From an uncultured Actinomycetota bacterium (GTDB taxonomy: Bacteria; Actinomycetota; Actinomycetes; Actinomycetales; Microbacteriaceae), in the NCBI GenBank assembly GCA_963696085.1, contig CAVOIQ010000004.1, positions 48,291-112,290 on the forward strand: a DNA stretch of 64,000 bases, in the 5' to 3' direction. The first letter of the stretch is position 1; each line of letters opens with the position of its first letter. This document shows positions 4,874-28,349 of the stretch, in pieces. The notes under the pieces were generated by a model. That model worked only from the letters and a program-made list of their open reading frames with translations, was not told where the DNA came from and made no database searches. The position numbers were made by a program, and so were the translations under genes.

Positions 4874-5925
4874 ACCGCACCGAACCCCTGGTGCTGGGGA
4901 TCGAGACGAGCTGCGACGAGACCGGAATCGGAATCGTGCGCGGCCGGACGCTCCTGTCCAACACGATCGCGTCGTCGATGGACGAGCACGCTCGCTACGG
5001 CGGGGTGATTCCCGAAATCGCGGCGCGCGCACACCTCGAAGCGTTGCAGCCCGCCATCGAGGCCGCTGTCGCCGAGGCCGGCGTGCAATTGACCGACCTC
5101 GACGCGATCGCCGTCACGAGCGGTCCCGGGCTCGCCGGCGCGCTCATGGTCGGCATCGGTGCCGCGAAGGCACTCGCCGTCTCGCTGGAAAAGCCGCTCT
5201 ACGCCGTCAACCACCTCGTCGGGCACATCGCCGCAGACCTCCTCACCGGCGAGGACGTCGAATATCCGACAGTGGCGCTGCTCGTCAGCGGTGGACATAC
5301 CTCGCTGCTGCTCGTACGCGACTTGGTCTCGGATGTCGAGCTTCTCGGTGAAACCATGGACGACGCTGCCGGCGAGGCGTTCGACAAGATCGCGCGAATC
5401 CTCGGCCTTCCCTACCCCGGCGGGCCGGAGATCGACCGGGCCGCGGCATCCGGCGACCCTCGGGCGATCCGGTTCCCACGCGGAATGTCTCGGGCGTCGG
5501 ACATGGCTGAGCACCGCTACGACTTCTCCTTCTCCGGCCTGAAAACCGCCGTCGCCCGCTGGTGCGAGCAGCGCGAGGCCGCGGGGGAGTCCGTGCCGAT
5601 TGCGGATGTCGCGGCATCCTTCCGCGAGGCGGTCGTGGACGTGCTCGTCACGAAAGCCCTCGACGCGTGCGCTCGCCACGATGTGCCGCGCCTCCTCCTG
5701 GGCGGCGGCGTCATCGCCAACCGCAGGCTCCGCGACGTTGCCCTCGAGCGTGGCGCGGCCGCCGGAGTCGCCGTGCGCATCCCGCCCCTGTCGCTGTGCA
5801 CCGACAACGGGGCGATGATCGCCGGGCTCGCCGCCGAACTGATCGCCAGCGGCCGCGAGCCCTCCACGCTCGAGTTCGGTGCGGATTCGACCCTGCCGGT
5901 CACCGAAATCCAGGTGATCCGATGA
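4870..5925 (+). CDS. tsaD: t6A transferase TsaD
   Basis: [62 protein letters not shown]. Confidence 0.97.
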
Positions 5926-6503
5926 GCGACGAGCAGATTTCCCGGCCGCGCTCGCGCCGCGAAGCCAGCAGTCCGACCGAGGCAGGCGAACGGGACGAAC
6001 ACGGCGCCGTCGCACCCCCGGTTCCCGGGAAGACGGATGCCGCTTCTGCCGATGCAGCGGCCCCTGTCGCTCTCCCCACCACACCACCTGGTGCGTCACA
6101 CACGTCGGTCGAGAAACCCTCTGACGACGTGGCGACGGTGGGCGAGGCATCGAGCATGCCCGGTGAACACCGTGGCGGATTCCAGCGCGCGCTGACCGCG
6201 CCCGTGCCGATCACGGAGTCCGTGCACGTTCCCGTGGAGTGGGCCCCCGCCCCGCCTCGCCCCCTGCCGCGCATCGCGCCCTGGGCTCTGGGTCTGGCCA
6301 TCGTCGGGCTCTGCCTTTCGCTGATCGTCGGCTGGGCGTTTCCGCTCGGGATCGCTGCATTCGTGATGGCGATCGTCGCCCTGCGACGCCCGTGGGAGAG
6401 CCGGTCGGCCGCGGTGTGGGCACTGATGCTGGGGCTCCTGTCCCTCGTCTACAGCGCCGGATGGCTCTGGTGGGCCGCTTACCAGGCACATCTCCTGCCC
6501 TGA
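5922..6503 (+). CDS. Hypothetical membrane protein (Pro/Ala-rich N-terminus, C-terminal TM helices; DUF4190-like)
   Basis: ATG 5922 overlaps the tsaD stop; low-complexity N-terminus followed by hydrophobic segments. Confidence 0.7.
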
Positions 6504-6556
6504 ATCGCTCGGACGGGCGGGCGGTCGGACGGACGGGCGGGCGCGCGCGGCAGCAG

Positions 6557-7744
6557 TCAGACGCGGTCGGCGAGAAGCGCGACGCGCGATGACCCGACAC
6601 GGGTGAGGATCAGCGTGGCCGACTCCGCGCCCTTGAGCTTGAGCTTCGGGCGCAGGATCGCAGGATCGACATCCACCCCGCGCTTCTTGATCTCCAGAAT
6701 CCCGATGCCGCGCTCGCGCAGCGCTTTCGACAGTCCCTTCACGTCGGCGGGCAGGCGCTCTCGCACCCGGAACGTCGACACGAACGGGCTCGTCAGCGCG
6801 ACATCCGATGTCAAATACGCGATGCCCGGCGCCAGCATCCCCGCGTCCAGACTGCGCGCGACATCGCCGATCAGCCGTGCTCGAATCACGGCGCCCTCGG
6901 GCTCGTGCACGAATGCACCGAGGGGGCGAACATCGACGTCGGGCGTATCGCCGTCGGATGTCAGTTCATGCGCGGCATCACCACGGATGACGAGCGCGGC
7001 CCGTCCGACGCCCGCGCGCGCAAGTGCGCCCGACCACAGCACGAGTTCGACGGTTGCCCCGTCGACGCTGATCCACTGGGCCTCGACACCGTCGGGAATG
7101 CGTGTCCGATCGAAACCGGGCCCGAGCTTGATGCCGGTCGGCATGCGAGCGGCGAGGTCGAACGTCCAGTCGAGGGCCGGCGAATAATCCTCGGCTCCGA
7201 CGCGGGACGTCTCGGTGTGGCCCGCGGTGCGGCGGGCGGGGTCGAGCCACACGGCTTCGATCCCCGTCAGGTCCACCTCCTCGGCGCGATTGCTGCGTAC
7301 CTCGACGGACTCCCCGAACGGGGCGAGGTTGTAGGCGGCGATCGCGGCGGTCACTTCATCGGCATCGACCGCGAGCACGTCCAACCCGATCCCCGCCAAA
7401 CCCAGCGCATCGCCGCCGATGCCGCAGCCGAGGTCGGCGACGCGCGTGATCCCCGCTGCGCGGAATCGCCCCGCATGGCGAGCGGCGATCGCCAGCCGTG
7501 TCGCCTGTTCGAGGCCGGCGCGGGTGAACAGCATCCGATCGGCGAACTCCCCGAACTTGGCGCGCGCTTTCGTGCGCAGCCGAGCCTGGCCGACAGCGGC
7601 CGAGACGAGGTCGGCAGAGCGACCCTCGGCCCGCAGGCGCGACACGGCGGATGCGACGTCGCCGGCTGTCGCCAGAGGGCCGAGTTCATCGACGAGCCGG
7701 AGGCCCTCCGAGGTGAGCAGTGTCGACAGCTCTCCGAGATCCAC
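6557..7744 (-). CDS. Class I SAM-dependent methyltransferase with THUMP-like C-terminus
   Basis: EQAT, VADLGCGIGGD, DPARR motifs; usual position next to groES; -10 TAGGCT 6 nt before the GTG. Confidence 0.88.
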   Translation of the reverse strand: MDLGELSTLLTSEGLRLVDELGPLATAGDVASAVSRLRAEGRSADLVSAAVGQARLRTKARAKFGEFADRMLFTRAGLEQATRLAIAARHAGRFRAAGITRVADLGCGIGGDALGLAGIGLDVLAVDADEVTAAIAAYNLAPFGESVEVRSNRAEEVDLTGIEAVWLDPARRTAGHTETSRVGAEDYSPALDWTFDLAARMPTGIKLGPGFDRTRIPDGVEAQWISVDGATVELVLWSGALARAGVGRAALVIRGDAAHELTSDGDTPDVDVRPLGAFVHEPEGAVIRARLIGDVARSLDAGMLAPGIAYLTSDVALTSPFVSTFRVRERLPADVKGLSKALRERGIGILEIKKRGVDVDPAILRPKLKLKGAESATLILTRVGSSRVALLADRV

Positions 7745-9414: not shown

Positions 9415-10678
9415 ATGAACGTCTCTACACGTTCTCGCGCAGGAAAGATCATCGTCGGCATCGCCGCGATGGGAATCAGCGCAGTCGTCCTGGCCGGTTG
9501 CTCAGGCAGCTCGACCTCCACGGAGTCAAGCGCCGCCGCCGCACCGGCCGCAGAGGACCTCACCCTCAAGATCGGCACGGTCCTTCCCCAGACCGGTAGC
9601 CTCGCCTTCCTCGGCCCGCCCGAAGAAGCCGGCGTTCAGCTTGCTATCAACGAGGTCAACGAGGCTGCGGCCGGCGTGACCATCGATGCAACCTTCGGCG
9701 ACTCGGGTGACGCGGACAACAAGGCCTTCGAGACGACCGTCCCGAAGCTGCAGAGCGAAGGCGTCTCCGCCATGATCGGTGCGGCCTCCTCGGGCGTCAC
9801 CAAGCTCTTCCTCGACAGCAACGTCTCCGAGGGCATCATCACGTTCTCCCCGGCGAACACCTCGCCCGACTTCACGACGTGGGAAGACGACAACCTCTAC
9901 TGGCGTACCGCCCCCAGCGACCTGCTCCAGGGCGAGGTCCTCGCCAACCAGGTTGCCGAGGATGGCCACAAGAACATCGCCGTCCTGTACCAGAACGACG
10001 CCTACGGCACCGGCCTCTTCGGCGTTGTCAAGGAGGTCTTCGAGGCCTCCGGCGGCACCGTCGTCGCAGACGCCTCGTACAACGATGGTGACTCCTCCTT
10101 CGATGCTCAGGTCGCGACCCTCACGGCGTCGAACCCTGACGCGATCGTGCTCATCACGTTCGACCAGCTGGCGACCATCGCTCCGCTGCTCGTGAACGCG
10201 GGACAGTCGGCCGAAGAACTTCTACCTCGTCGACGGAAACCTCAAGCAGTGGGGTACCGACGTCAGCGTCAGCCTCGAAGGCGCCAAGGGCACGACGCCC
10301 GGACCGGTGCTTTCGGATGACTTCCAGGAGCGCCTGAACGCGGCCTGGGTCGCCGAAGGCAACGCCGACCTCGAGGACCTCAGCTACGCAGGCGAGTCCT
10401 ACGACGCCGTCGTGCTGCTCGCGCTCGCATCGCTCGCGGCGGGTTCGACCGATTCGGCCGACATCGCGGCGAAGCTGCAGGAAGTCTCCGGCGGTTCCGG
10501 TGACGGTGAGAAGTGCACCACGTTCGCGGACTGCGCCGAGATCATCACCGGCGGCGGCACGGCCGACTACGACGGCTACTCCGGTGGCGTTGCATTCGAC
10601 GACGCTGGCGACCCGACCGAGGCCACCATCGGTGTCTTCCAGTACGACGCCGACAACAAGTTCACGCGCATCAACTAA
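9415..10678 (+). pseudogene. Branched-chain amino acid ABC substrate-binding lipoprotein with one apparent +1 frameshift
   Basis: Lipobox VLAGC. Removing one base at ~10213-10216 gives ...GQSAENFYLVDGNLKQWG... in frame with the 10307..10678 ORF. Codon usage is strongly GC3-biased. Confidence 0.85.
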
Positions 10679-16834: not shown

Positions 16835-16890
16835 CCCCGCCTGCCGCTGTCGCCGAACCACCGCTCTCGCGGGGAATTCGCCGCGCCCGG

Positions 16891-18015
16891 TCAGGCGGGC
16901 AGGCGGAACGGGGCGGCCGCCCGGGCGGTGTCGTCGGTCGCGAGCCCGGCAAGCACCGCGCCCACCGCGGGAGTGAACTTGAAGCCGTGCCCGGAGAATC
17001 CGGCACCGACGACGATGCGGCCGCGGCGATCGAGCACGAAATCCTCGGTGGCTGTCGAGGTGTAGGTGCAGCTGATCGGCACAGCACTGTCGGCGTCGAG
17101 CCCCGGCATCCACTCTCCGACGTAGTCGCGCAGCAGGGCGGCGAGCTCCGGCACCGGACGGAAGGTGCGGGCGTCGGGGTTGACGACGGGTCCGACGAGA
17201 TGGAATCCCACCTTCACACCCTCGCCCGGAGTGGGCATCCCGTAGACGTTGCCGGGGAAGCGGTCACGCGGCAGCAGGTGGTTGAACGATGGCCACGCAG
17301 GCGTCCGATCGCCCGAGGTCGTGTCGAGCGGCGCGAAATGGGCCGGGCTCTCTTCCGTGACGGTCAGCGGAGGGAGTGCGAAGGAGGCGGGAAGGATGCC
17401 GCGCGTCCAGGCTCCGGCGGTGACGACCACCACGTCGGCGACGAAGTCCTGGCGTTCGCCGTGCCGCTCGACGGTGACGACCACGTCGTCGGCCCGCTCC
17501 TGGATGTCCACCACGCCCGCGCCGTAGTGCACCTCGGCGCCGAAGCCTCGTGCCCCGCGTTCGAGCGCTTCGAGCGCGGCCGCCGCGCGCACCACACCCG
17601 CGTCCGGGGTGAACAGGGCATCGCCGTCGAACCGCATGCCCCGCCACCGGCGCGCTGCTTCGTTCGACGACAGCACCTCGGCGCGCGCGCCGCGGGCGGT
17701 GAGCGCCGCGTGGACGCGGGCGATGGCGTCGTCATCGCCGTGCGTCACGAGCCCGTGCAGGCGCAGCAGCGGCTCGCCCGTCGTGCGTGACAGCTCGTCC
17801 CACTCGGCACGGGCGAGATCAAGCAGGTCCAGGTAGTGATCGGCGGAGTAGGCATTGTTGAAGTTGCGCGTCGCACCGTGCGATGCGCCACGCGTGTGGC
17901 CGCGCTCGAAGCGCTCGAATGCGACCACTCTGTGGCCGCGCCGCGCCAGCTGCCAGGTTGTGGCCAGTCCCATCGCGCCGGCGCCCACGACGATGTGCGA
18001 AACGCGCTCTGTCAT
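16891..18015 (-). CDS. Monomeric sarcosine oxidase / N-methyltryptophan oxidase (SolA)-family flavoprotein
   Basis: VGAGAMG, GASHGATR, SCTYT (position of the flavinylated Cys), GFSGHGFKF. Confidence 0.85.
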   Translation of the reverse strand: MTERVSHIVVGAGAMGLATTWQLARRGHRVVAFERFERGHTRGASHGATRNFNNAYSADHYLDLLDLARAEWDELSRTTGEPLLRLHGLVTHGDDDAIARVHAALTARGARAEVLSSNEAARRWRGMRFDGDALFTPDAGVVRAAAALEALERGARGFGAEVHYGAGVVDIQERADDVVVTVERHGERQDFVADVVVVTAGAWTRGILPASFALPPLTVTEESPAHFAPLDTTSGDRTPAWPSFNHLLPRDRFPGNVYGMPTPGEGVKVGFHLVGPVVNPDARTFRPVPELAALLRDYVGEWMPGLDADSAVPISCTYTSTATEDFVLDRRGRIVVGAGFSGHGFKFTPAVGAVLAGLATDDTARAAAPFRLPA

Positions 18016-19886
18016 ATTCTCGTTCCAATGGTGGGGATCGGTTCGGCGCGCGTGGACAGCGCGGCGCGCAGCGCTGCGCGGGCAGCGGCGTCGATCTCTC
18101 GCAGCACGGTCGAGTTCGTGTGGGGGACCGGCGCGATGATCGTGAAAACCCGGATGTCCTCATGTGGGACACCAACGGAGAACAGATCGGCTGCCGCCGT
18201 GCCGTCGCTCCCGACCACGGCGCCGTCTTCGGCGCGCACGTCCAGCGCATCCGACGCGGTTCCGTCGGGGAAGCGCCAGACGCGACCGATGCCGTCTTCG
18301 AGAAGTCGGCGAAGCAAGGGATCGGCGGTGCGCTTCACGGTGGGGGCGGGCAGCCACGCCTCGACGATCCGTTCGGCAGTGACGGTCTCGCCTGCCCGTG
18401 TCGCGACGGTGACACCGTCATCTCGCACCTCGACGGCGATCTGACCGCCCGCGAACCGGACGACACCCGCCTCGTGCGCGGCGAGGAGCTGGCGGGCGCG
18501 ACGCAGCGGCGGACCGCTGCCGAAGGACGCGGCCGTCGCCAGAAACGCGCGATAGGCAGGGAAGGACTCGGTCGTGAGACCACCGAAGCCGACGAGATCG
18601 ATCACCGCGGATCGAGCGGCCGCATACGAGTGCAGAGCGAGTTTGAGCGGACTTTCCATACCCCGTGCAGCCTCGTCGGCGTCCCGCCGCACGGCGGACG
18701 CGACATCCGCATCGGTCATGGATTCGCGCGAATGGAAGGGGTCCGCGGCGTCGACCAGCGACAGTCGGTCTGCGGGATCCGCGATGTGTATCGCGACCAG
18801 CGCCGCCACGGACTCGTCCGTCGTTCGAAGGGCATCGAGGAGTGCAGGTGCATCGCGCACCGCACCGGGTCGCACGCGCACGAGCGCCCGGTAGTAGTCG
18901 AACGCGGCGTCGCGCTCGATCAGCGGGAGCACGTCGCGGGCGAAGTCCACCGGGCGCCGCGATCGCAGCCGAGGCAGGGCCGCGCGCAGGATGCGCTGCT
19001 CGGGGAAGAACGGCGGTGCGCCGAAGTCGGGCTTCGCCCGGTAGGGGAGGCCGCGACGGGAGCCCGCGACCAGGAAGGGTTCCTCCCCGGACGGCTCGTA
19101 ACGGCACGAACCGTCGGCGAGATCGATGAAGCGGCCGCCGCGCTGCTCCGTCAGTTGGCTGAGCGTATCGAAGAACCCCATCCCCAGGCCGCGCACCGCG
19201 ACGATCTCGCCCGCCCGGATCGGCGACAGGTCCTGGTCGATCGGATTGCCGGCAGCGATGACCCGCGCATGCGGCGCGGGAGCCGCCGGGTCGAGCCAGC
19301 CGACCGCGAGCAGCACCGCATCCGTCGTCAGAGCGTTGCCATCGTCGAGCTCGACGCTCCAGCCGGCAGCGGCGCGCTCCAGCGCGATCGCGCGCGCACG
19401 ATGGACCCGCACCTCGACATGCGGCGGCGCCGACCGCACGATGTCTTCGAAGCACCACCTGAGGTAGTGGCCGTAGAGCAGTCGCGAGGGATTCGAGTGG
19501 TCCCGCGTCGCGACCGCTTCGGCGATCACCTCGGTCGGGGCGTCAGCACCGGCGACGGCCGGATCCGCGGCGACGAGGCGACACCACTGCGCCAGCGAGG
19601 GACCGGGGCGGATCGGACCTTCGCATTCGACGGTTCCGTCGGTGAACAGCGTCGACTGCGCCGCGACCGTGTTCATGATCAGAAAGGACGACTGCGCGGC
19701 CCGCCAGATGCGGCCGGACCCCGGCGGGTACGGATCGATGACATGCACGATGAGCTGCTGACGAGCATCGTCGCTGGCGCTGGCAAGGATGCGTTCGAGC
19801 GCCGAAGTACCTCGCACGCTGGCCCCGATGATCGTGACGGATGCCGGGGAGGCGCGGTCGTCACCTGTCAGCCGATCCGCTCGCAC
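18012..19886 (-). CDS. FAD/NAD(P)-binding oxidoreductase, CreE/FzmM-like (NAD_binding_9 family)
   Basis: IIGASVRGTSALERI, VIDPYPPGSGRIWR..QS..LIMNTVAAQ, GLGMGFFD, GSRRGLPY. GTG 19886 is chosen because CAGGAT sits 6 nt upstream; 624 aa. Confidence 0.82.
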   Translation of the reverse strand: MRADRLTGDDRASPASVTIIGASVRGTSALERILASASDDARQQLIVHVIDPYPPGSGRIWRAAQSSFLIMNTVAAQSTLFTDGTVECEGPIRPGPSLAQWCRLVAADPAVAGADAPTEVIAEAVATRDHSNPSRLLYGHYLRWCFEDIVRSAPPHVEVRVHRARAIALERAAAGWSVELDDGNALTTDAVLLAVGWLDPAAPAPHARVIAAGNPIDQDLSPIRAGEIVAVRGLGMGFFDTLSQLTEQRGGRFIDLADGSCRYEPSGEEPFLVAGSRRGLPYRAKPDFGAPPFFPEQRILRAALPRLRSRRPVDFARDVLPLIERDAAFDYYRALVRVRPGAVRDAPALLDALRTTDESVAALVAIHIADPADRLSLVDAADPFHSRESMTDADVASAVRRDADEAARGMESPLKLALHSYAAARSAVIDLVGFGGLTTESFPAYRAFLATAASFGSGPPLRRARQLLAAHEAGVVRFAGGQIAVEVRDDGVTVATRAGETVTAERIVEAWLPAPTVKRTADPLLRRLLEDGIGRVWRFPDGTASDALDVRAEDGAVVGSDGTAAADLFSVGVPHEDIRVFTIIAPVPHTNSTVLREIDAAARAALRAALSTRAEPIPTIGTRI

Positions 19887-19974
19887 CGGTCCATCCTGGC
19901 AGGGCGTCCCAGCCCTCTCGGCCCGTCCGGGCCGTTTGTGTCGGCGTGTGTCGGGGCGACTTCGTCGATCGAGT

Positions 19975-19990
19975 GAAACGTTTCTACGTT
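19975..19990. promoter_or_regulatory. Palindrome GAAACGTTTC abutting a -10-like TACGTT; LacI-type operator candidate
   Basis: Perfect 10-bp palindrome at 19975-19984 inside the divergent intergenic region; TACGTT at 19985-19990. Confidence 0.45.
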
Positions 19991-20067
19991 GGGGACTACG
20001 CCGCAGCGGTGAATCGCATCGCCGCGGCGTCTCACAGCCTCGCCATCCAATCCAGGAGCACACCGTC

Positions 20068-21219
20068 ATGCCTCATTTCCGTCGCGGAGCCGCCCTCGCC
20101 GGCGCCGCCGCCCTCGTGCTCGGCCTCACGGCCTGCAGCACCCCCGCCGCTCAGTCCGGCGACGCCGTCGCCACGGAGCCCGTGCGCATCGGCGTCGCGC
20201 TGCCGCAAACCGGTGACCAGGCCCAGTACGGGGAGTACTTCCAGCAGGGATTCGATCTCGCCCTCGACCAGCTCAACGACGCGGGTGGCATCGACGGCCG
20301 GCAGGTCGAGCTCGTATACGAAGACACCCAGGCCGATCCCGCGCAGGCGCCCGCGGTCGCGCAGAAGTTCGTCGACGACGAGTCGATCCTCGCCGTGCTC
20401 GGAGACTTCGGTTCGCCGGCGTCCGCCGCAGGCAGCCCCATCTATCAGGCCGCAGGGTTGGTGCAGTTCGCGTTCTGCGCGTCGGCCTCGACCGTGACCG
20501 ATCCGGGCGACTACGTGTTCGCGACGTGGGTCTCGCAGGAGTACGAAGCCCCCCGCCTGGCAGAGTTCGCCGCCGAGCAGGGCTCGACCGCCGCGGTCTT
20601 CTACCAGGACACTGACTGGGGTCAGGAGACCCACGGCTTCTTCTCCGGGGGCGCCGACAAGGCCGGACTCGACGAGGTGTACTCGACCGCGTACAACCCC
20701 GAGAGCACGGACTACCGCCCGCTGCTGCTGGCGGCCCAGGCCGAGAACCCCGAGGTCATTGTCCTCATCTCGTACGCGGCGGACGCTGCGCTCATCACGT
20801 CGCAGGCGCGTGAACTCGGCATCGATGTTCCGATCGTCGGCATCAGCTCGATCTACAACCAGCAGTTCATCGATCTCGCCGGCGATGCCGCCGAGGGCGT
20901 GCAGACGCTGAGCTACTTCACCCCGAAGAACCCCGACGAGGATGTGCAGCAGTTCATCGCGGACTTCGACGCCGAGTACGACGTCGAGACGCCGTCGGAC
21001 TTCGCCATCCGTGCCTACGACGCGCTCAACATCGTCGCAACGGCGGCTAACAGCACTGACGAGCTCACCCGCGCGAGCCTGCGCGATGCCCTGGCCACCG
21101 GCGAGGACTTCCCGACCATCCTCTACGGCCCGATCACCTTCACCGAGGATCGCCGCGTGGTGGACGCCGAGCAGTACCCGCTGGTGGTCAAAGACGGCGC
21201 ATTCGAGCTCGTCGAGTAG
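20068..21219 (+). CDS. Liv-type ABC substrate-binding lipoprotein
   Basis: SD AGGAG; lipobox GLTAC; IGVALPQTG, GGIDGRQVELVYED, AYDA. Confidence 0.9.
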   Translation: MPHFRRGAALAGAAALVLGLTACSTPAAQSGDAVATEPVRIGVALPQTGDQAQYGEYFQQGFDLALDQLNDAGGIDGRQVELVYEDTQADPAQAPAVAQKFVDDESILAVLGDFGSPASAAGSPIYQAAGLVQFAFCASASTVTDPGDYVFATWVSQEYEAPRLAEFAAEQGSTAAVFYQDTDWGQETHGFFSGGADKAGLDEVYSTAYNPESTDYRPLLLAAQAENPEVIVLISYAADAALITSQARELGIDVPIVGISSIYNQQFIDLAGDAAEGVQTLSYFTPKNPDEDVQQFIADFDAEYDVETPSDFAIRAYDALNIVATAANSTDELTRASLRDALATGEDFPTILYGPITFTEDRRVVDAEQYPLVVKDGAFELVE

Positions 21220-21294
21220 CGCCGCACTCACGACCGAACCCTGTCCGGGTGCCCGCTACGGGTACCCGGACATCGGTATGAAAGGGACCTTCGG

Positions 21295-23166
21295 GTGGAC
21301 ATACTCCTTGCAGGGATCGTCAGCGGCAGCACGTATGCGCTGCTCGCGATCGGCGTTTCGCTGATCTTCGGCGTATCCAACATCGTCAACTTCGCGGCGG
21401 GCTCGGTGTTCGCCGCAGGCGCGATGATGGGCTGGTTTCTGGCCGCAGTGCTGGCGTGGCCGCTGTGGGCGGTGCTGGGCGGGGTGGTCGCATTCACGAG
21501 CCTGCTCGGGTGGCTCATCTTCGTGGTCGCGGTGCGGCCGCTGCGGACGGCACCGGGCATCGCCGTGCTGCTGTCGACGTTTGCTGTCGGCATCATCCTC
21601 GACAACACCTCACAGCGGGTGTTCGGTGCTGAGACGCGTCGCTTTCCTGCGTTGCTCGAGCGCAGCAACTTCGAGCTGTTCGGGTTCCGCTTCGGCACCA
21701 TCGCGATCGTCATCATCGGTGTGAGTGTGGTGTGCGTCGTGGTGCTCGCTTGGGTGCTGGCGCGTACGCGCATCGGCCGCGCGATCCGCGCCACCTCGCA
21801 GGACCGTGACGCCGCAGCCCAGATGGGCATCCCGGTCGACCGCATCCAAGCAATCTCCTTCGTCATCGCCTCCGCGCTCGGTGGTGTCGCGGGAGTCCTC
21901 GTGGGCATGTACTTCTCGAATGTCGCGCCGTCCATGGGGTTCGCCGCAGGCGTGCAGGCGTTCGCCGCGGCGACCATCGGCGGGCTGGGCTCGTTGCCCG
22001 GGGCGATCGTCGGGGGTCTCATCCTCGGCGTGGCCGAGGCCTTCGGTGTGTCCCTCTGGGGTGATTCGGTGCGCCAGCTCATCACGTTCGGCGCACTCAT
22101 CCTGGTGCTGTGGGTCCGGCCGGGCGGCATCCTCGGCCGCGTTCCTGCCGTGGCGAGCGAGCCGATGACCGGCACGTTCTTCGGTGCGGGCACACCACTG
22201 CGCCTGAACCGGTGGCTCGCCTTCGGACTGCTGGGGGCGGGGCTGCTGGTGCCGGTCATCGCCAGCGACTACCTCCTGCGGACGGGGGCGCTGGTCTGGA
22301 TATACGCACTCTTCGCACTGTCCGTCACCCTCGCGGGGGGCTTCGCCGGCCAGATCGTGCTGGGGCAGGCCGGGGCGCTGGCGATCGGCGCGTACACCTC
22401 GGCGCTGCTGGTCACGCAGGCCGGCTGGGACTTCTGGGCGAGTTTCGTGGCCGCCGGACTCTGTGCCGCGATCGGGAGCGTATTGCTGACTGCTCCGACG
22501 TGGCGGCTCCGAGGGCACTACGTATCGATGGCGACGCTCGCCACCGGCGGGTTGATCGCCGCGCTCGCGCTCAACCTGCAGGGCATCACGAACGGCGCGC
22601 GCGGCATCTACGGCATCCCCCGGCCGACGCTTTTCGGCGTCCCCGTTTCGTCCGCCGCAGGGATGTACCTGCTCGCGTTCGCGGTGCTCGCCGGGGCCCT
22701 GGTCATCGTGTCGCGCCTCGGGTCCTCGCACCTCGGCCGCTCGTGGGCCGCGGTGCGCGAGGACGAAGTGGCTGCGGCATCGTCCGGCATCCACCCGGCG
22801 GCGTACAAGTCGCTGGTGTTCGGGCTCGGGTCGGCCATTGCCGGCTTCGCCGGGGCGCTGTACGCCGCCCAGGTCACCTATATCGAGCCGAGCCAGTTCG
22901 GCATATCGCTCTCGGTGCTGGCCGTGACGATCGCCATCCTCGGGGGCCTGCGCGCACCGATGGGCGCCGTCGTGGGTGCCGTCGTGCTGGTGGGCGTCCC
23001 CGAGTTCTTCCGCGCGTTCGCGGACTGGCGACTCCTGTTCTACGGTGTCCTGCTGCTGGTTCTGATCTTGTGGCGGCCGCAGGGGTTGTGGGCGCATTCC
23101 GACACGTTCGCACGGCTGTGGGGGCGCCTGACCCGCCGCCGAGTCAGTGAAGAGGTGGTCTCGTGA
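21295..23166 (+). CDS. Fused LivH-LivM ABC permease
   Basis: Two permease halves: IFGVSNIVNFA...TRIGRAIRA...RPGGILG, then GQIVLGQ...SHLGRSWAAVREDE...RPQGLW. Confidence 0.9.
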   Translation: MDILLAGIVSGSTYALLAIGVSLIFGVSNIVNFAAGSVFAAGAMMGWFLAAVLAWPLWAVLGGVVAFTSLLGWLIFVVAVRPLRTAPGIAVLLSTFAVGIILDNTSQRVFGAETRRFPALLERSNFELFGFRFGTIAIVIIGVSVVCVVVLAWVLARTRIGRAIRATSQDRDAAAQMGIPVDRIQAISFVIASALGGVAGVLVGMYFSNVAPSMGFAAGVQAFAAATIGGLGSLPGAIVGGLILGVAEAFGVSLWGDSVRQLITFGALILVLWVRPGGILGRVPAVASEPMTGTFFGAGTPLRLNRWLAFGLLGAGLLVPVIASDYLLRTGALVWIYALFALSVTLAGGFAGQIVLGQAGALAIGAYTSALLVTQAGWDFWASFVAAGLCAAIGSVLLTAPTWRLRGHYVSMATLATGGLIAALALNLQGITNGARGIYGIPRPTLFGVPVSSAAGMYLLAFAVLAGALVIVSRLGSSHLGRSWAAVREDEVAAASSGIHPAAYKSLVFGLGSAIAGFAGALYAAQVTYIEPSQFGISLSVLAVTIAILGGLRAPMGAVVGAVVLVGVPEFFRAFADWRLLFYGVLLLVLILWRPQGLWAHSDTFARLWGRLTRRRVSEEVVS

Positions 23167-24026
23167 CCGAGCCGACGACCAGGCCCCTACTGCGGGTCAC
23201 CGGCCTGACGAAACGCTTCGGCTCCTTGACGGTGGTCGACAATGTCTCGCTCGAGATCCAGCGCGGCGAGGTCGTGTCGATCATCGGCCCCAACGGCAGC
23301 GGCAAGACGACGACTCTCAACATCATCAGCGGGGTGCTGCGCGCGGCATCCGGATCCGTGGAGCTGGACGGCAGACGCATCACCGGCCGCAAGCCGCACG
23401 AGATCGCCAATCTCGGGCTCACTCGCACGTTCCAGAACGGCCGCGTGATCGGCAATCTCACGGTCGCCGAGAACGTCCTCGTCGGATTGGAGTCGGTGCA
23501 GACCATCGGGCGTCCGCTGTCGACGTTGCGCGGCATCCCGGGCATCCGCTGGCTCCCCCTTCTCGCCGAGACCGTGAGCGCGCTGCTTCCCGGACCTCGC
23601 CGCCGACGCCAGGATGCGGCAGACGCGGAGCGCGTGAGCGCGGAACTCGCGCGGTTCGGCGACCGCCTCGCGCCGCGCCGCGACCAGTACGCGTACTCGC
23701 TCTCGTACGCCAACCGTCGTCGCACCGAGATCGCGCGTGCTCTCGTGGCCTCGCCAAAGCTGCTCGTGCTCGACGAGCCGACGGCCGGAATGAACCAGAC
23801 CGAGACCGCCGAGGTGCTCCAACAGCTGCTCGAGCTCAAGAAGGCGGGCCTCACGATGCTGCTCGTCGAGCACAAGCTCGATCTGGTCATGACCGTGTCG
23901 GATCGTGTGCTCGTTCTCGACGACGGGCGGCTGATCGCACAGGGCCGGCCCGACGACGTCCGCCGGGATCCGCGCGTCATCGAGGCCTACCTCGGCAAAG
24001 CCTTCGCGGAAGGATCCGACGCATGA
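23163..24026 (+). CDS. ABC ATP-binding protein, LivG-like
   Basis: GPNGSGKTT, TRTFQ, LSYANRRRTEIARAL, LDEPTAGM, VEHK. Confidence 0.92.
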   Translation: MTEPTTRPLLRVTGLTKRFGSLTVVDNVSLEIQRGEVVSIIGPNGSGKTTTLNIISGVLRAASGSVELDGRRITGRKPHEIANLGLTRTFQNGRVIGNLTVAENVLVGLESVQTIGRPLSTLRGIPGIRWLPLLAETVSALLPGPRRRRQDAADAERVSAELARFGDRLAPRRDQYAYSLSYANRRRTEIARALVASPKLLVLDEPTAGMNQTETAEVLQQLLELKKAGLTMLLVEHKLDLVMTVSDRVLVLDDGRLIAQGRPDDVRRDPRVIEAYLGKAFAEGSDA

Positions 24027-24847
24027 CCGCGCTGCTCGCATTCGAGGACGTCACGGTGAGCTACGGCGTGAGCCCCGCTCTCGAGAACGTGACGCTCCAG
24101 CTCGAGGAAGGGCACATCACCTGCCTGCTCGGCGGCAACGCCTCGGGGAAGTCCACCACCATGAAGACGATTCTCGGGCTGATTCGCCCGGTGTCGGGCC
24201 GCGTGATCTTCGACGGTCAGGACATCACCGGTTGGGGCACACCCCGCCGCATCCGTGCGGGCATCGCGTCGGTCCCGGAAGCGAGGCGCGTGTTCGCCGA
24301 CATGACCGTCGAAGACAACCTGCTCGCCGGCGCGTATGTGCGCCTCGACCGGGGCATCCGGCGCACGCTGGCTGAGGTATACGAGTTCTTCCCGCGGCTC
24401 GCCGAGCGCAGGGTGCAGCGAGCGGGCACGTTGTCGGGCGGAGAGCAGCAGATGCTCGCGTTCGGCCGAGCGCTGATGAGCCGCCCGCGACTGATCTGCA
24501 TGGACGAGCCCACAATGGGGCTGGCGCCGATCGTCGTCGAGCGCGTCCTCGGGCACATCGCCACGATCAACCGCGACCTCGGCGTGAGCGTTTTCATGGT
24601 GGAGCAGAACGCCGAGCTGGCGTTGAGCGTGGCGGACAGCGGCTACGTGCTGCGCACCGGCCGAATCGCCGTGACCGGCACGGCCGCTGAGTTGCTCGCC
24701 CACCCGGGCGTGCGCGAGGCGTACCTCGGCCGGGCGATCGATCCGGCTGCTGCGCCGCTCGAGGTCGCGGGGCGATCAGATCCCGGCACGGGCACCCCCG
24801 CGCGCGCTGACACGACGACCGACGCCACAGAGGACGGACGAGCATGA
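24023..24847 (+). CDS. ABC ATP-binding protein, LivF-like
   Basis: ATG 24023 overlaps the previous stop; GGNASGKST, LSGGEQQMLAFGRAL, MDEPTMGLAP. Confidence 0.92.
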   Translation: MTALLAFEDVTVSYGVSPALENVTLQLEEGHITCLLGGNASGKSTTMKTILGLIRPVSGRVIFDGQDITGWGTPRRIRAGIASVPEARRVFADMTVEDNLLAGAYVRLDRGIRRTLAEVYEFFPRLAERRVQRAGTLSGGEQQMLAFGRALMSRPRLICMDEPTMGLAPIVVERVLGHIATINRDLGVSVFMVEQNAELALSVADSGYVLRTGRIAVTGTAAELLAHPGVREAYLGRAIDPAAAPLEVAGRSDPGTGTPARADTTTDATEDGRA

Positions 24848-25347
24848 CCGATGTACTCCTGACGATCGCGGAGGTCGTCTCGGACGCCCCGCGCGACCAT
24901 CGACCCGCGGTTCGCGAAGCGGCACAGGCGAGCTATCACGCACTGTTCGACGTCCCTGCCGACGACCCGGCACCCGGTGTCGACCGGTCGCTGCGGCATC
25001 TCATCGCGGCCCGCACTGCCCGGCTGGAGGGCGACGGTCCGGCCGTCGAGTTCTATCTCGAGTCCGTCGATGCCCGCGATGAGCAGTCGCTTGTGGAGCA
25101 GGGACCGGATGGACCGGCGGGAGTGCGGGCGCCGCGGCGCACGCGCGCCGCGCTGCGCTACGTCGACCTTCTCACCACACGTCCTGCTGGGGCGACGGTC
25201 GACGATCTGAACGGGCTGCTCGCCGCAGGCTGGGAGCCCGCCGAGATCGTCGTGATCGGACAGATCGTGGGTTTGGTGACCTATCAGGTGCGCGTCGCGC
25301 AAGGGCTGCGCGTACTGGATGATCTGTTCGGGGAGGACGACCGTTGA
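24844..25347 (+). CDS. CMD-domain protein (Avi_7170-like)
   Basis: R..VREAAQASYHALF and AGW...EIVVIGQIVGLVTYQVRV resemble this family; no CxxC; paired with an AhpD-like gene. Confidence 0.7.
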   Translation: MTDVLLTIAEVVSDAPRDHRPAVREAAQASYHALFDVPADDPAPGVDRSLRHLIAARTARLEGDGPAVEFYLESVDARDEQSLVEQGPDGPAGVRAPRRTRAALRYVDLLTTRPAGATVDDLNGLLAAGWEPAEIVVIGQIVGLVTYQVRVAQGLRVLDDLFGEDDR

Positions 25348-25973
25348 GCACGCGATTCACCACCGAGGAACGCGCTTGGCACGCGTGGATCGAGCCGGTC
25401 GGTCCTGACACCGGCTCACCAGCGCAGATCGCGGCGTACGAGTCGAGCGTGTGGCCCGACTCGCCGTATTTCCGCCTGCTGGCGTGGCATCCCGGCGCAC
25501 TGGCGGCCAGGACCGCGCTGGACCGTGCGATCTTCCTCGGGCGACCGGGGCTGCCGCGCGGCGAACGCGAACTGGCGGCGACCGTCGCTTCACGCCTCAA
25601 CGGTTGCGAACTGTGCACCAGCGTGCACTCTCGGTTCACCGTCACCTTCACCAAGCAGGAGGACGCCGTCCAACGCCTCCTCGAAGAGGGCGTCGATGCC
25701 CTCTTCGAGCCGCGCTGGCGGGCGATCGTCGATGCTGCCGCGGCGCTCAGCGCCTCGCCGCCGCGGTTCGCCGCTCACCACGCACGGGCACTGGTGGACG
25801 TCGGGTTCTCTCGTGCCGACATCCAGGACATCGTGGAATCGACGGCGTTCTTCGCCTGGGCGAACCGCCTGATGCTCAGTCTTGGGGAGCCCGCCGCACC
25901 CGACGCTGCGGACGGGGAGGCGATCGCCAACCAGCGCGCCGCCGACGCCCTCGCCGCGGAGACTGCGGCGTAG
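25344..25973 (+). CDS. Alkylhydroperoxidase AhpD-domain protein (Avi_7169-like)
   Basis: SPYFRLLA, ERELAATVASRLNGCELCTSVH (CxxC..H), FFAWANRLMLSLGEP. Confidence 0.85.
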   Translation: MSTRFTTEERAWHAWIEPVGPDTGSPAQIAAYESSVWPDSPYFRLLAWHPGALAARTALDRAIFLGRPGLPRGERELAATVASRLNGCELCTSVHSRFTVTFTKQEDAVQRLLEEGVDALFEPRWRAIVDAAAALSASPPRFAAHHARALVDVGFSRADIQDIVESTAFFAWANRLMLSLGEPAAPDAADGEAIANQRAADALAAETAA

Positions 25974-25987
25974 GCGCCTCGGAGGCG

Positions 25988-26032
25988 CACCCACCTGCCT
26001 TCCCGCCACCATCGCGGGAAGGCAGGCGGGTG
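25988..26032. terminator. Hairpin between convergent ahpD-like and MFS genes
   Basis: 19-bp stem CACCCACCTGCCTTCCCGC/GCGGGAAGGCAGGCGGGTG with one mismatch that is a G.U wobble on the minus strand. Confidence 0.75.
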
Positions 26033-26035
26033 TCG

Positions 26036-27556
26036 TCACGCCTCGGCGAGCGCGGGCTCGCGGGTGACAGATGCCTCGGCCGCGGCATCCGTCTCCACGG
26101 TGTTCGCGGGAGCGGAGCGTCCGACGGGCAGCCACAGCGCGACGACGGCGGCGGCCAGCAGCACTGCGGCCCCGGTCAGCACCGCGGGGCGCGCGGCGTC
26201 GACGTAAAGGTCGGGCCGCAGCTCGCCCCCGGCGCTCACGAAGATCGCTGTCATCACGGCCGTTCCCAGAGCAATGCCGATCTCACGCGCGGTGGAGTTG
26301 ACCCCGGACGCCTTGGCGTGGTCGAGCACTCCGAGTGTCGCCAGCAGTGCGGTCGCCGACGGCGCGAAGACAAGCCCCATGCCGATGCCGGCGAGGATGA
26401 ATGGCGCCACCATCTGTGCGTAGGCGAGGTCGGCTGAGAGCGTGAGGCCGATCCACCCCAGTGCGATGCCCTGCAGCACGAGGCCCGACAGCAGCAGGAT
26501 TCGCGTGCCGACCCGAGGTGCGATGATGCCGGCGATCGGCGCGACGAACATCGGCGCGAGGGTCCAGGGCGTTGTCTGCACCGCGGCTTCGAGGGGCGTC
26601 GACCCCTGCACGACCTGCAGGTACTGGATCAGGATGAACACCGACCCAAAGGTTCCGAAGCTGAACGCGAAGCCGACGATGTTCGTCAGCGAGAATGACC
26701 GGTCGCGGAACAGCCGCAGCGGCACGAGTGGCGCCTTCGTGCGGGTCTGCCAGCCCAGGAAGGCCAGCAGCAGCACGATCCCGGCCGCGATCTCGGCGAT
26801 GACACCCGCCGACGACCAGCCGTCATCGTTGCCACGGACGATCGCATGGACGAGAGCGAGCACGCCGACGGCCGCGAGCAGTGCTCCGAAGACGTCGATC
26901 CGGGCGCGCTCGCCGAAGTCGTTGTTCAAGGCGAACAGTGCGAGGGGGATGGCGATGAGCGCGACCGGGATGTTGATCCAGAAGATGGACTGCCAGTTCA
27001 AGCCCTCCATGATCGCGCCGCCGACGAGTGGCCCGACCGCGACGCCGAGACCGGCGACGCCGCCCCAGATGCCGATTGCGAGTGGTCGGCGCGCCGGCGC
27101 AACGCCGCCGGCGATGAGGGCGAGCGACAGCGGCATGACTCCGGCGCCGCCGAAGCCCTGCAGCGCGCGGGCGGCGATGAGCTGCCCCGGGTCAGTACTG
27201 AGGGCCGCGAGGGCCGATCCGATGCCGAACAGCGCGATGCCGATCACGAAGACGGTGCGGCGGCCGAAGCGATCGCCGAGTGCCGACGCGACAAGGATCG
27301 CGCTCGCGAATGCCAGCGTGTACGCGTTCATGAACCATTGCAGCTCTTCGACGCTGGCCCCGAGCTCGCTGTGCAGCACCGGGAGCGCGTTGGTCATGAC
27401 GAGGTTGTCGAGCGTGGCCATGAACATCGGGACGGATGCCGCGGCAACGACGAGTCCGAAGGACCGCGTGCGTCCGGGGCTCCCGCCGGCACGGCTTCGC
27501 ACGGATGCCGGATTCGTCGCGTCAGCCATCGGCGCGGGGGTGATGACGTCGCTCAT
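26036..27556 (-). CDS. DHA2 (14-TM) MFS efflux transporter
   Basis: FMATLDNLVM, GDRFGRR, GPLVGG, WQSIFWINIP; divergent from tetR. Confidence 0.92.
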   Translation of the reverse strand: MSDVITPAPMADATNPASVRSRAGGSPGRTRSFGLVVAAASVPMFMATLDNLVMTNALPVLHSELGASVEELQWFMNAYTLAFASAILVASALGDRFGRRTVFVIGIALFGIGSALAALSTDPGQLIAARALQGFGGAGVMPLSLALIAGGVAPARRPLAIGIWGGVAGLGVAVGPLVGGAIMEGLNWQSIFWINIPVALIAIPLALFALNNDFGERARIDVFGALLAAVGVLALVHAIVRGNDDGWSSAGVIAEIAAGIVLLLAFLGWQTRTKAPLVPLRLFRDRSFSLTNIVGFAFSFGTFGSVFILIQYLQVVQGSTPLEAAVQTTPWTLAPMFVAPIAGIIAPRVGTRILLLSGLVLQGIALGWIGLTLSADLAYAQMVAPFILAGIGMGLVFAPSATALLATLGVLDHAKASGVNSTAREIGIALGTAVMTAIFVSAGGELRPDLYVDAARPAVLTGAAVLLAAAVVALWLPVGRSAPANTVETDAAAEASVTREPALAEA

Positions 27557-27577
27557 GCGAGCCTCTTCTCGGGTGTT

Positions 27578-27628
27578 GTAATTGAATGATTACTTCGGTC
27601 ACACCGACTGTAGTAATCCGCTGATAAC
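27578..27628. promoter_or_regulatory. Two candidate TetR operators GTAAT-N6-AT(T/A)AC
   Basis: GTAAT-TGAATG-ATTAC (27578-27593) and GTAAT-CCGCTG-ATAAC (27613-27628) in the divergent MFS/tetR gap. Confidence 0.6.
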
Positions 27629-28276
27629 ATGTCAAGCGTGAAAACAAATGAGGGAACGACGACGACGTCAAAGCCCGCGCCGGCCATCCGGATGAGCTCC
27701 GAAGATCGCCGCGAGCAGATCATCGCCGCAGCCCTGGCGGTGTTCGGCGCCAAGGGGTACGAAGGCACCACGACGGACGAGGTCGCCCGCACCGCCGGGA
27801 TCAGCCAGCCGTACGTGGTCCGGCTGTTCGGCACGAAAGAGAACCTTTTCCTCGCGGCCATGCAGTCCGCGCTCGACGAGCTGATGCACACGTTCCGCGC
27901 GGAACTCGCCGACGAGGCATCCGATCGTCCCGTCGCCAAGCGCATCGGGGAGGCGTACGTCGAACTGCTCAGCACGCGGGGACTGCACCAGACCCTCTCG
28001 CACGCGTGGCTGCTCGGCGGGCACCCGGTGATCGGGCCGGCCGCGCGGCGCGGTTTCGCGCAGGTCTGGCAATTCTTCCGCGATGAGGCGGGCCTGGATG
28101 CTGACGAGGCCCGGATGTTCCTTGCCGAAGGCATGCTGATCAACGTCATGATCGGCATGCGCCTCGTCGACGACTACGGCTCGGATCCGCGGATCACCGA
28201 GCTCTTCCGCACGTGCTTCCCGACCGAGCTGCCGCACATCCTCGACATCGCGCCCAAGGGCAACGAGCCCTGGTAG
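27629..28276 (+). CDS. TetR-family regulator
   Basis: RREQIIAAALAVF..KGYEGTTTDEVARTAGISQPYVVRLFGTKENLF. Confidence 0.95.
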   Translation: MSSVKTNEGTTTTSKPAPAIRMSSEDRREQIIAAALAVFGAKGYEGTTTDEVARTAGISQPYVVRLFGTKENLFLAAMQSALDELMHTFRAELADEASDRPVAKRIGEAYVELLSTRGLHQTLSHAWLLGGHPVIGPAARRGFAQVWQFFRDEAGLDADEARMFLAEGMLINVMIGMRLVDDYGSDPRITELFRTCFPTELPHILDIAPKGNEPW

Positions 28277-28349
28277 CAACGTGACGGATGCGGTGCACCC
28301 AGAGGTCGCGGCATCCCGCCGAACGAACCGGCGCCGGTAGGCTGGACCT

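Follow-up and report, generated by a model that had tools for sequence, protein, structure and literature searches.

What does a flavin monooxygenase with the fold of the nitrous-acid-forming enzymes CreE and FzmM do in a genome that holds no CreD lyase? The question is raised by two overlapping minus-strand genes in a 64,000-nucleotide stretch (the window) of contig CAVOIQ010000004.1 from an uncultured Actinomycetota bacterium of the Microbacteriaceae: one for a class B flavin monooxygenase (18012..19886; 624 amino acids (aa); PF13454, 1e-36) and one for a sarcosine-oxidase-like protein of the MSOX/MTOX type, an amine oxidase with covalently bound flavin (16891..18015; 374 aa; PF01266 DAO, 9e-49). 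CreE and FzmM convert aspartate to nitrosuccinate, from which the lyase partner CreD or FzmL then frees nitrous acid; to our knowledge, nearly all that is known of enzymes with this fold concerns the supply of nitrite for natural products with N–N bonds, and they serve as genome-mining markers of these pathways. A preliminary description of this DNA had presented the protein as CreE/FzmM-like, without a CreD lyase nearby, and had suggested a substrate other than aspartate. We find that the gene pair is part of a conserved uptake cluster, and we estimate a probability of roughly 0.6 that it forms the oxidative half of an accessory uptake-and-oxidation cluster and not a nitrous-acid (aspartate–nitrosuccinate) pathway, a reading in which we infer the substrate class, the chemistry and the order of steps.

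The monooxygenase shares the fold of the aspartate enzymes and is separated from them in the tree. The aspartate N-hydroxylase of Streptomyces sp. V2 (PDB 8CP2) matches residues 14–609 with an E value of 2.7e-86, and an AlphaFold (AF2) model (pLDDT 95.1, pTM 0.93) aligned by Foldseek to 8CP2 with a template modelling (TM) score of 0.84 and 39% identity, the next-best folds (NbtG, DesB, KtzI and SidA) reaching a TM score of 0.46 or lower. The predicted fold is that of FzmM, with three domains. Among 64 homologues collected with 7-kb flanks from Actinomycetes genomes, the CreE clade comprised 17 sequences, 12 of them with a CreD-like lyase gene immediately downstream, and no such lyase-adjacent gene lay outside this clade. 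The clade of the window protein was separate (SH-aLRT 99); a constraint joining both clades cost 144 log-likelihood units, with a p value of 4.2e-12 in the approximately unbiased (AU) test that is indicative only, since the tested group was chosen after the tree had been seen. The phylogenetic comparison that had been suggested earlier thus places the monooxygenase outside CreE: the FzmM/CreE-type fold in the preliminary description stands, but 'CreE without CreD' overstates the kinship, and by its sequence the protein is not a CreE.

The residues that contact the substrate point in the same direction. According to the paper describing 8CP2, Trp51 and Asn62 lie at the flavin, L-aspartate is bound in an entry chamber by Arg13, Arg276, Arg416, Arg577 and Asn413, and the arginine cluster of this chamber also includes Arg266, Arg409 and Arg412. 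Its text describes an N413E mutant without hydroxylation, where its Table 2 instead lists the 413 variant as N413A with a KM >1 mM; the same table gives a KM >4 mM for V571F. None of the 17 CreE sequences departs from R266, R276, R409, R412, N413, R416 or R577, and at position 571 they carry V, A or M. Throughout the window clade, R266 is replaced by K, R276 falls in a three-residue deletion within a PPFFP stretch, R409 is A, Q or G (Ala in the window protein), N413 is S, A, G or L (Ser), R416 is I or V (Ile), V571 is F and R577 is V or I (Val); R412 stays R. The window protein therefore keeps one of the five aspartate ligands, Arg13, the others having become a deletion, Ser, Ile and Val. The flavin side is intact: the equivalents of Trp51 and Asn62, W61 and N72, are invariant, as is the second dinucleotide motif (GxGxG; G233, G235 and D240), an NADP motif. 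Because the positive charges of the chamber drop from seven to three and hydrophobic side chains come in, a dicarboxylic amino acid would be a very unlikely substrate. Residue changes, tree topology and AU test together bear out the earlier suggestion that the substrate differs from aspartate.

Seven positions yield a signature, R-R-R-N-R-V/A/M-R in the aspartate enzymes and K-x-R-x-I/V-F/Y-V/I in the window class, which was found in 35 (about one in nine) and 48, respectively, of 317 aligned members of PF13454. This family is very large, with 1980 representative clusters at E<=1e-3; CreE-type enzymes make up a minority of it, and the window protein belongs to a separate clade. Elsewhere in the family, the domain occurs inside long proteins of 5264, 1594, 1474 and 1366 aa (P0244, P0151, P0218 and P0235), which suggests that FzmM-fold domains have been joined to megasynthases or to modules of other kinds.

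The first dinucleotide-binding motif, G-A-S-V-R-G (19809..19826, minus strand; IIGASVRGTS in context), carries Ser at the second Gly of GxGxxG, the alteration that had been pointed out before. This Ser is present in 33 of the 317 aligned family members, all of them in the orthologue clade of the window protein (about 50–84% identity), and Gly is present in 277 others; the orthologues from Leucobacter, Microterricola and G158 (a different genus) have Gly in the motif, yet their chamber signature is the same as in the window. From this distribution the Ser of GxSxxG reads as a fixed lineage trait and not as a sign of decay.

The two overlapping open reading frames (ORFs) and the altered motif are as first described. 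A GTG at 19886, preceded about 8 nt upstream by AGGA, serves as the monooxygenase start; an ATG-started frame would be longer (18012..20069, minus strand), but orthologue alignments begin only at residue ~10–16, so that the GTG start is reasonable. At the junction (...AGA ATA TGA CAG...), the TGA of the monooxygenase is overlapped by the ATG of the oxidase (ATGA, 18012..18015, minus strand), and four orthologous loci (L039, L040, L041 and L083) keep an overlap of this kind, ATGA or GTGA, downstream of a purine-rich stretch, which supports the coupling to an MSOX-like partner proposed earlier. The monooxygenase gene is the sole full PF13454 gene of the genome (3.16 Mb, 97.8% complete). The absence of a CreD lyase, first remarked for the neighbourhood, extends across this genome: the search proposed at that time found only fumC-like, aspA, argH and purB as Lyase_1 genes, and no creD. 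Since no ORF in the window exceeds 829 aa, there is also no megasynthase nearby. Within the CreE clade itself, five genes from 7–10-Mb genomes (L044, L047, L048, L054 and L058) keep the full aspartate-binding signature, and their 7-kb flanks contain no CreD-like lyase; these genes could encode producers of nitrosuccinate or 3-nitropropionate that work without one, or the lyase could lie elsewhere.

Divergently from the pair, across an intergenic region (19887..20067), runs a plus-strand set of six genes, joined mostly by 4-base overlaps. It opens with a HAAT/Liv-type substrate-binding lipoprotein (20068..21219; PF13458, 3.9e-65; PDB 3HUT, 4.9e-44), whose signal peptide ends in LTAC, followed by a fused LivH/LivM-type permease (21295..23166; two PF02653 stretches and both the LivM and LivH models of NCBIfam), a LivG-type ATP-binding cassette (ABC) ATPase (23163..24026; PF00005, PF12399) and a LivF-type ABC ATPase (24023..24847; PF00005), which overlaps livG by ATGA and whose orthologues align from residue 1. 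Two CMD-domain proteins complete it. The first, CMD_Avi_7170-like and 167 aa long (24844..25347), matches TIGR04029 at 1.6e-25 (90.8 bits; cut-off 100.75) and lacks Cys, as does every orthologue; the second, an AhpD-like 'peroxidase-related' protein of 209 aa (25344..25973; PF02627), passes TIGR01926 (142.8 bits; cut-off 81.8), scores below TIGR04030 (201.6 bits; cut-off 233.15) and carries a CxxCxxxH motif that is invariant in eight relatives. The intergenic region contains a 14-nt inverted repeat (19998–20030, 86% complementary), a candidate operator; the cluster contains no regulator gene, an Rfam scan of 15–30 kb returned no riboswitch or other family, and a consensus scan of the intergenic region returned no sigma-70-type promoter.

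These genes travel together. All eight are present in Microbacterium lacus, M. telephonicum, M. album and one metagenome-assembled genome, four Microbacterium loci in all, and G158 has a single-strand cluster in the order importer, CMD pair, monooxygenase and oxidase. In the ten members of the wider clade, the CMD pair lies nearby in nine and the oxidase in six; an ABC importer of the Liv or Opp type is confirmed in eight, and L086 may add a ninth, judging by its unannotated ORFs. The importer and the AhpD-like pair, neither of which figured in the preliminary description, are the most constant partners across the clade. Among 301 sampled Microbacteriaceae genomes, 53 have a PF13454 homologue, and in 21 of these a gene of the same oxidase subfamily lies <=15 kb from it, with ~1 expected by chance; this is a hand count over related, non-independent genomes, but they span at least 13 genus codes. 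Some members of the wider clade add an FMO-like gene, or a URO-D-like gene and an SDR. In L088, the PF00743 FMO-like gene (5709–6986) immediately precedes the PF13454 gene, and both belong to an operon with a Liv importer, so that two class B monooxygenases stand in tandem. In L086 (5057–6208) and L087 (9113–10411), the CMD match falls in the C-terminal portion of one ORF of 383–432 aa, which may be a fusion of both CMD-pair genes.

The oxidase belongs to the MSOX fold and differs from the characterized enzymes at the carboxylate-binding Arg52. MSOX structures in the PDB match it (best 5e-45), and it scores below the cut-offs of its best NCBIfam models (MTOX, 224.6 with a cut-off of 257; soxA_mon, 217.8 with a cut-off of 479.65). 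Mapped on PDB 1EL5, it keeps C315 (covalent FAD), K265, H269, Y254, Y55, K348 and R49, the first four being C316, K268, H272 and Y258 in its own numbering; Arg52 is replaced by Asn (Ser in one relative), Met245 by Asn and Phe100 probably by Ala. According to a recent paper, the substrate carboxylate is bound in Sox-family enzymes by the conserved residues Arg52, Tyr55 and Lys348; this triad is incomplete here, with Arg52 lost and Tyr55 and Lys348 retained. The residue signature is common to all 11 oxidases adjoining PF13454 genes, and the oxidase forms a subfamily of its own, found in 84 of the 301 genomes (E<=1e-40).

On the basis of these sequence features, the cluster would most likely serve to break down or scavenge a neutral amino-acid derivative taken up from outside. 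The lipoprotein-anchored Liv/HAAT-type importer would take up an amino-acid-like compound that is neutral and probably either hydrophobic or N-substituted. With O2 and NAD(P)H, the 624-aa enzyme, presumably FAD-dependent, would most likely oxygenate a soft nucleophile on a non-dicarboxylic substrate, an amine nitrogen or, less likely, a thioether sulfur, because its flavin-side residues are intact and its chamber arginines have mostly become Ile, Val, Phe or Ser. The coupled MSOX-like oxidase, with its covalent-FAD Cys, would most likely oxidize a secondary-amine C–N bond in the same substrate or in the monooxygenase product, and the AhpD-like CxxC protein with its Cys-free partner may contribute thiol-redox chemistry, to remove peroxide or to reduce an N–O or S–O bond. 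N-dealkylation followed by N-oxygenation, the sequence proposed earlier, is one option. The fuller version, an undescribed catabolic or scavenging route in which a de-cationized FzmM-fold N-oxygenase, an Arg52-less MSOX-like oxidase and the AhpD-like CxxC pair act on an imported N-alkylated or otherwise neutral amino acid, we put forward tentatively, at slightly less than even odds.

The cluster occupies the gap between guaB and guaB3 (window 16835–28349), and we compared this interval in the window, G258, G579, G126, G197 and G034. Its contents vary within the genus from 16 bp to 11.5 kb: 16 bp only in G258, an MFS transporter and a TetR gene in G579, the oxidase, an unrelated ORF, an MFS transporter and a TetR gene in G126, and the full cluster over 11.5 kb in the window. 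As the gap is a variable cargo site, the link of the cluster to guaB is positional only. On the question of insertion or deletion, the G126 gap held no monooxygenase remnants, the unrelated ORF standing there instead. Elsewhere in the window (9415–10678, plus strand), a second Liv-type ABC system has a binding protein apparently split into two ORFs, one of 301 aa with the N-terminal Peripla_BP_6 part and one of 123 aa corresponding to the C-terminal end of ANF_receptor, which may reflect a frameshift or a pseudogene.

Several observations weigh against an uptake-and-oxidation role for the pair. In G126, of the same genus, an oxidase 70% identical occupies the same site by guaB, but the monooxygenase, the importer and the CMD pair are all missing, so the oxidase is able to act on its own; the majority of genes in this oxidase subfamily lie away from any PF13454 gene, in variable contexts, and 16 loci without a PF13454 gene showed no constant neighbour of the oxidase and gave no clue to its substrate. 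In the PDB comparison the HAAT binding protein is generic; neither its structural relatives nor those of the AhpD-like protein gave a clue to ligand or function. FAD might, in principle, bind less tightly because of the Ser in GxGxxG. Finally, a third PF13454 clade (L101; also L093–L097 and L102) pairs with the same Arg52-to-Asn oxidase subfamily, and its genes adjoin an SBP_bac_3 ABC system, a GNAT gene and a luciferase-like monooxygenase, with Cys/Met pyridoxal-phosphate enzymes close by, a layout that we take to resemble sulfur-scavenging operons of the yxeK type. This third clade also favours the main alternative, organosulfur scavenging, in which an S-alkylcysteine- or methionine-like thioether amino acid would be imported and then S-oxygenated by the monooxygenase, with sulfoxide or sulfenate chemistry falling to the AhpD-like CxxC pair. 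Class B flavin monooxygenases oxygenate soft sulfur as well as nitrogen nucleophiles, and the motif of the CxxC protein is invariant; but every characterized member of the fold oxygenates primary amines, the sulfur-like context belongs to a clade other than that of the window, the partner here is an amine oxidase and the window cluster contains no sulfur-metabolism gene. We consider this alternative unlikely.

Three further explanations were rejected, each with a very low probability in our estimate. The idea of a genuine CreE/FzmM aspartate N-monooxygenase that works with no lyase, its nitrosuccinate decaying to 3-nitropropionate, could appeal to the fold and 39% identity shared with 8CP2 and to a precedent, lyase-free 3-nitropropionate production having been proposed for the homologues of the fungus Aspergillus. 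The fungal enzymes, however, retain all of the residues in question, whereas here only one of the five aspartate ligands is left and the arginine cluster is largely replaced; the AU test rejects a joint clade and the context is an importer, not a biosynthetic cluster, so that we regard this account as highly improbable. An HpyO-type urate hydroxylase tied to purine metabolism is suggested by the source names of relatives ('FAD-dependent urate hydroxylase Hp…' or '…HpyO/A…') and by the position between guaB and guaB3, with guaA also neighbouring. The names appear, in our reading of the naming, to be a shared domain label, the site is a variable insertion point whose flanking genes lie 16 bp apart in G258, neither guaB nor guaB3 was detected in the flanks retrieved for the M. 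album and G158 loci, and the context shows an importer of the amino-acid type and no purine-catabolic genes, leaving this explanation, judged on naming and gene context, hardly credible. That the protein is a decaying or inactive flavoprotein would fit the departure of GASVRG from the consensus, but it is scarcely more probable, given a Ser fixed in 33 orthologues, an open frame, retained catalytic residues and a very confident AF2 model, and given that the Leucobacter and G158 orthologues combine Gly with the same chamber signature.

The fuller version of the uptake-and-oxidation reading would, if true, give the FzmM fold its first non-biosynthetic role and a new substrate class. The window protein represents an uncharacterized specificity class of a known enzyme family within a conserved uptake cluster. 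The seven-position signature tells true aspartate enzymes from other classes and cautions against labelling the whole family CreE, and the locus supplies an expressible enzyme, along with the partner enzymes and the binding protein, as a candidate in which to look for a new substrate and possibly a new amine-catabolic route in Microbacteriaceae.

The monooxygenase resembles CreE/FzmM (8CP2/8CP5) in its three-domain fold with a helical substrate domain, in the retained W51, N62 and R13 equivalents and NADP motif, and presumably in its C4a-hydroperoxyflavin chemistry; it differs in the loss of the aspartate ligands R276, N413, R416 and R577 and of R409, in R266 to Lys and V571 to Phe, in GxSxxG instead of GxGxxG, and in lying in an uptake cluster, not a biosynthetic one, of a genome without CreD. 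The oxidase shares with MSOX/MTOX (1EL5, 2UZZ) the DAO fold and the Cys315, K265, H269, Y254, Y55 and K348 positions, but has Asn for Arg52 and for Met245 and probably Ala for Phe100, and falls under both NCBIfam cut-offs. The closest likeness to the Cys-free protein beside an AhpD-type CxxCxxxH protein is the functionally uncharacterized CMD_Avi_7170/perox_Avi_7169 pair (TIGR04029/TIGR04030), whose neighbourhood presumably comprises an ABC importer and a luciferase-like monooxygenase; the window proteins score just under the family cut-offs, the window monooxygenase is of the FzmM fold and not luciferase-like, and the window importer is of the Liv type. In the literature we found nothing on Avi_7169, Avi_7170, TIGR04029 or TIGR04030. 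The other characterized non-aspartate amine oxygenase named alongside the family is PcxL, the 2-aminoethylphosphonate N-oxygenase, which at a published 17–22% identity to FzmM-type enzymes is far more remote than the window protein; because PcxL acts on a non-aspartate amine, the family is able to change substrate.

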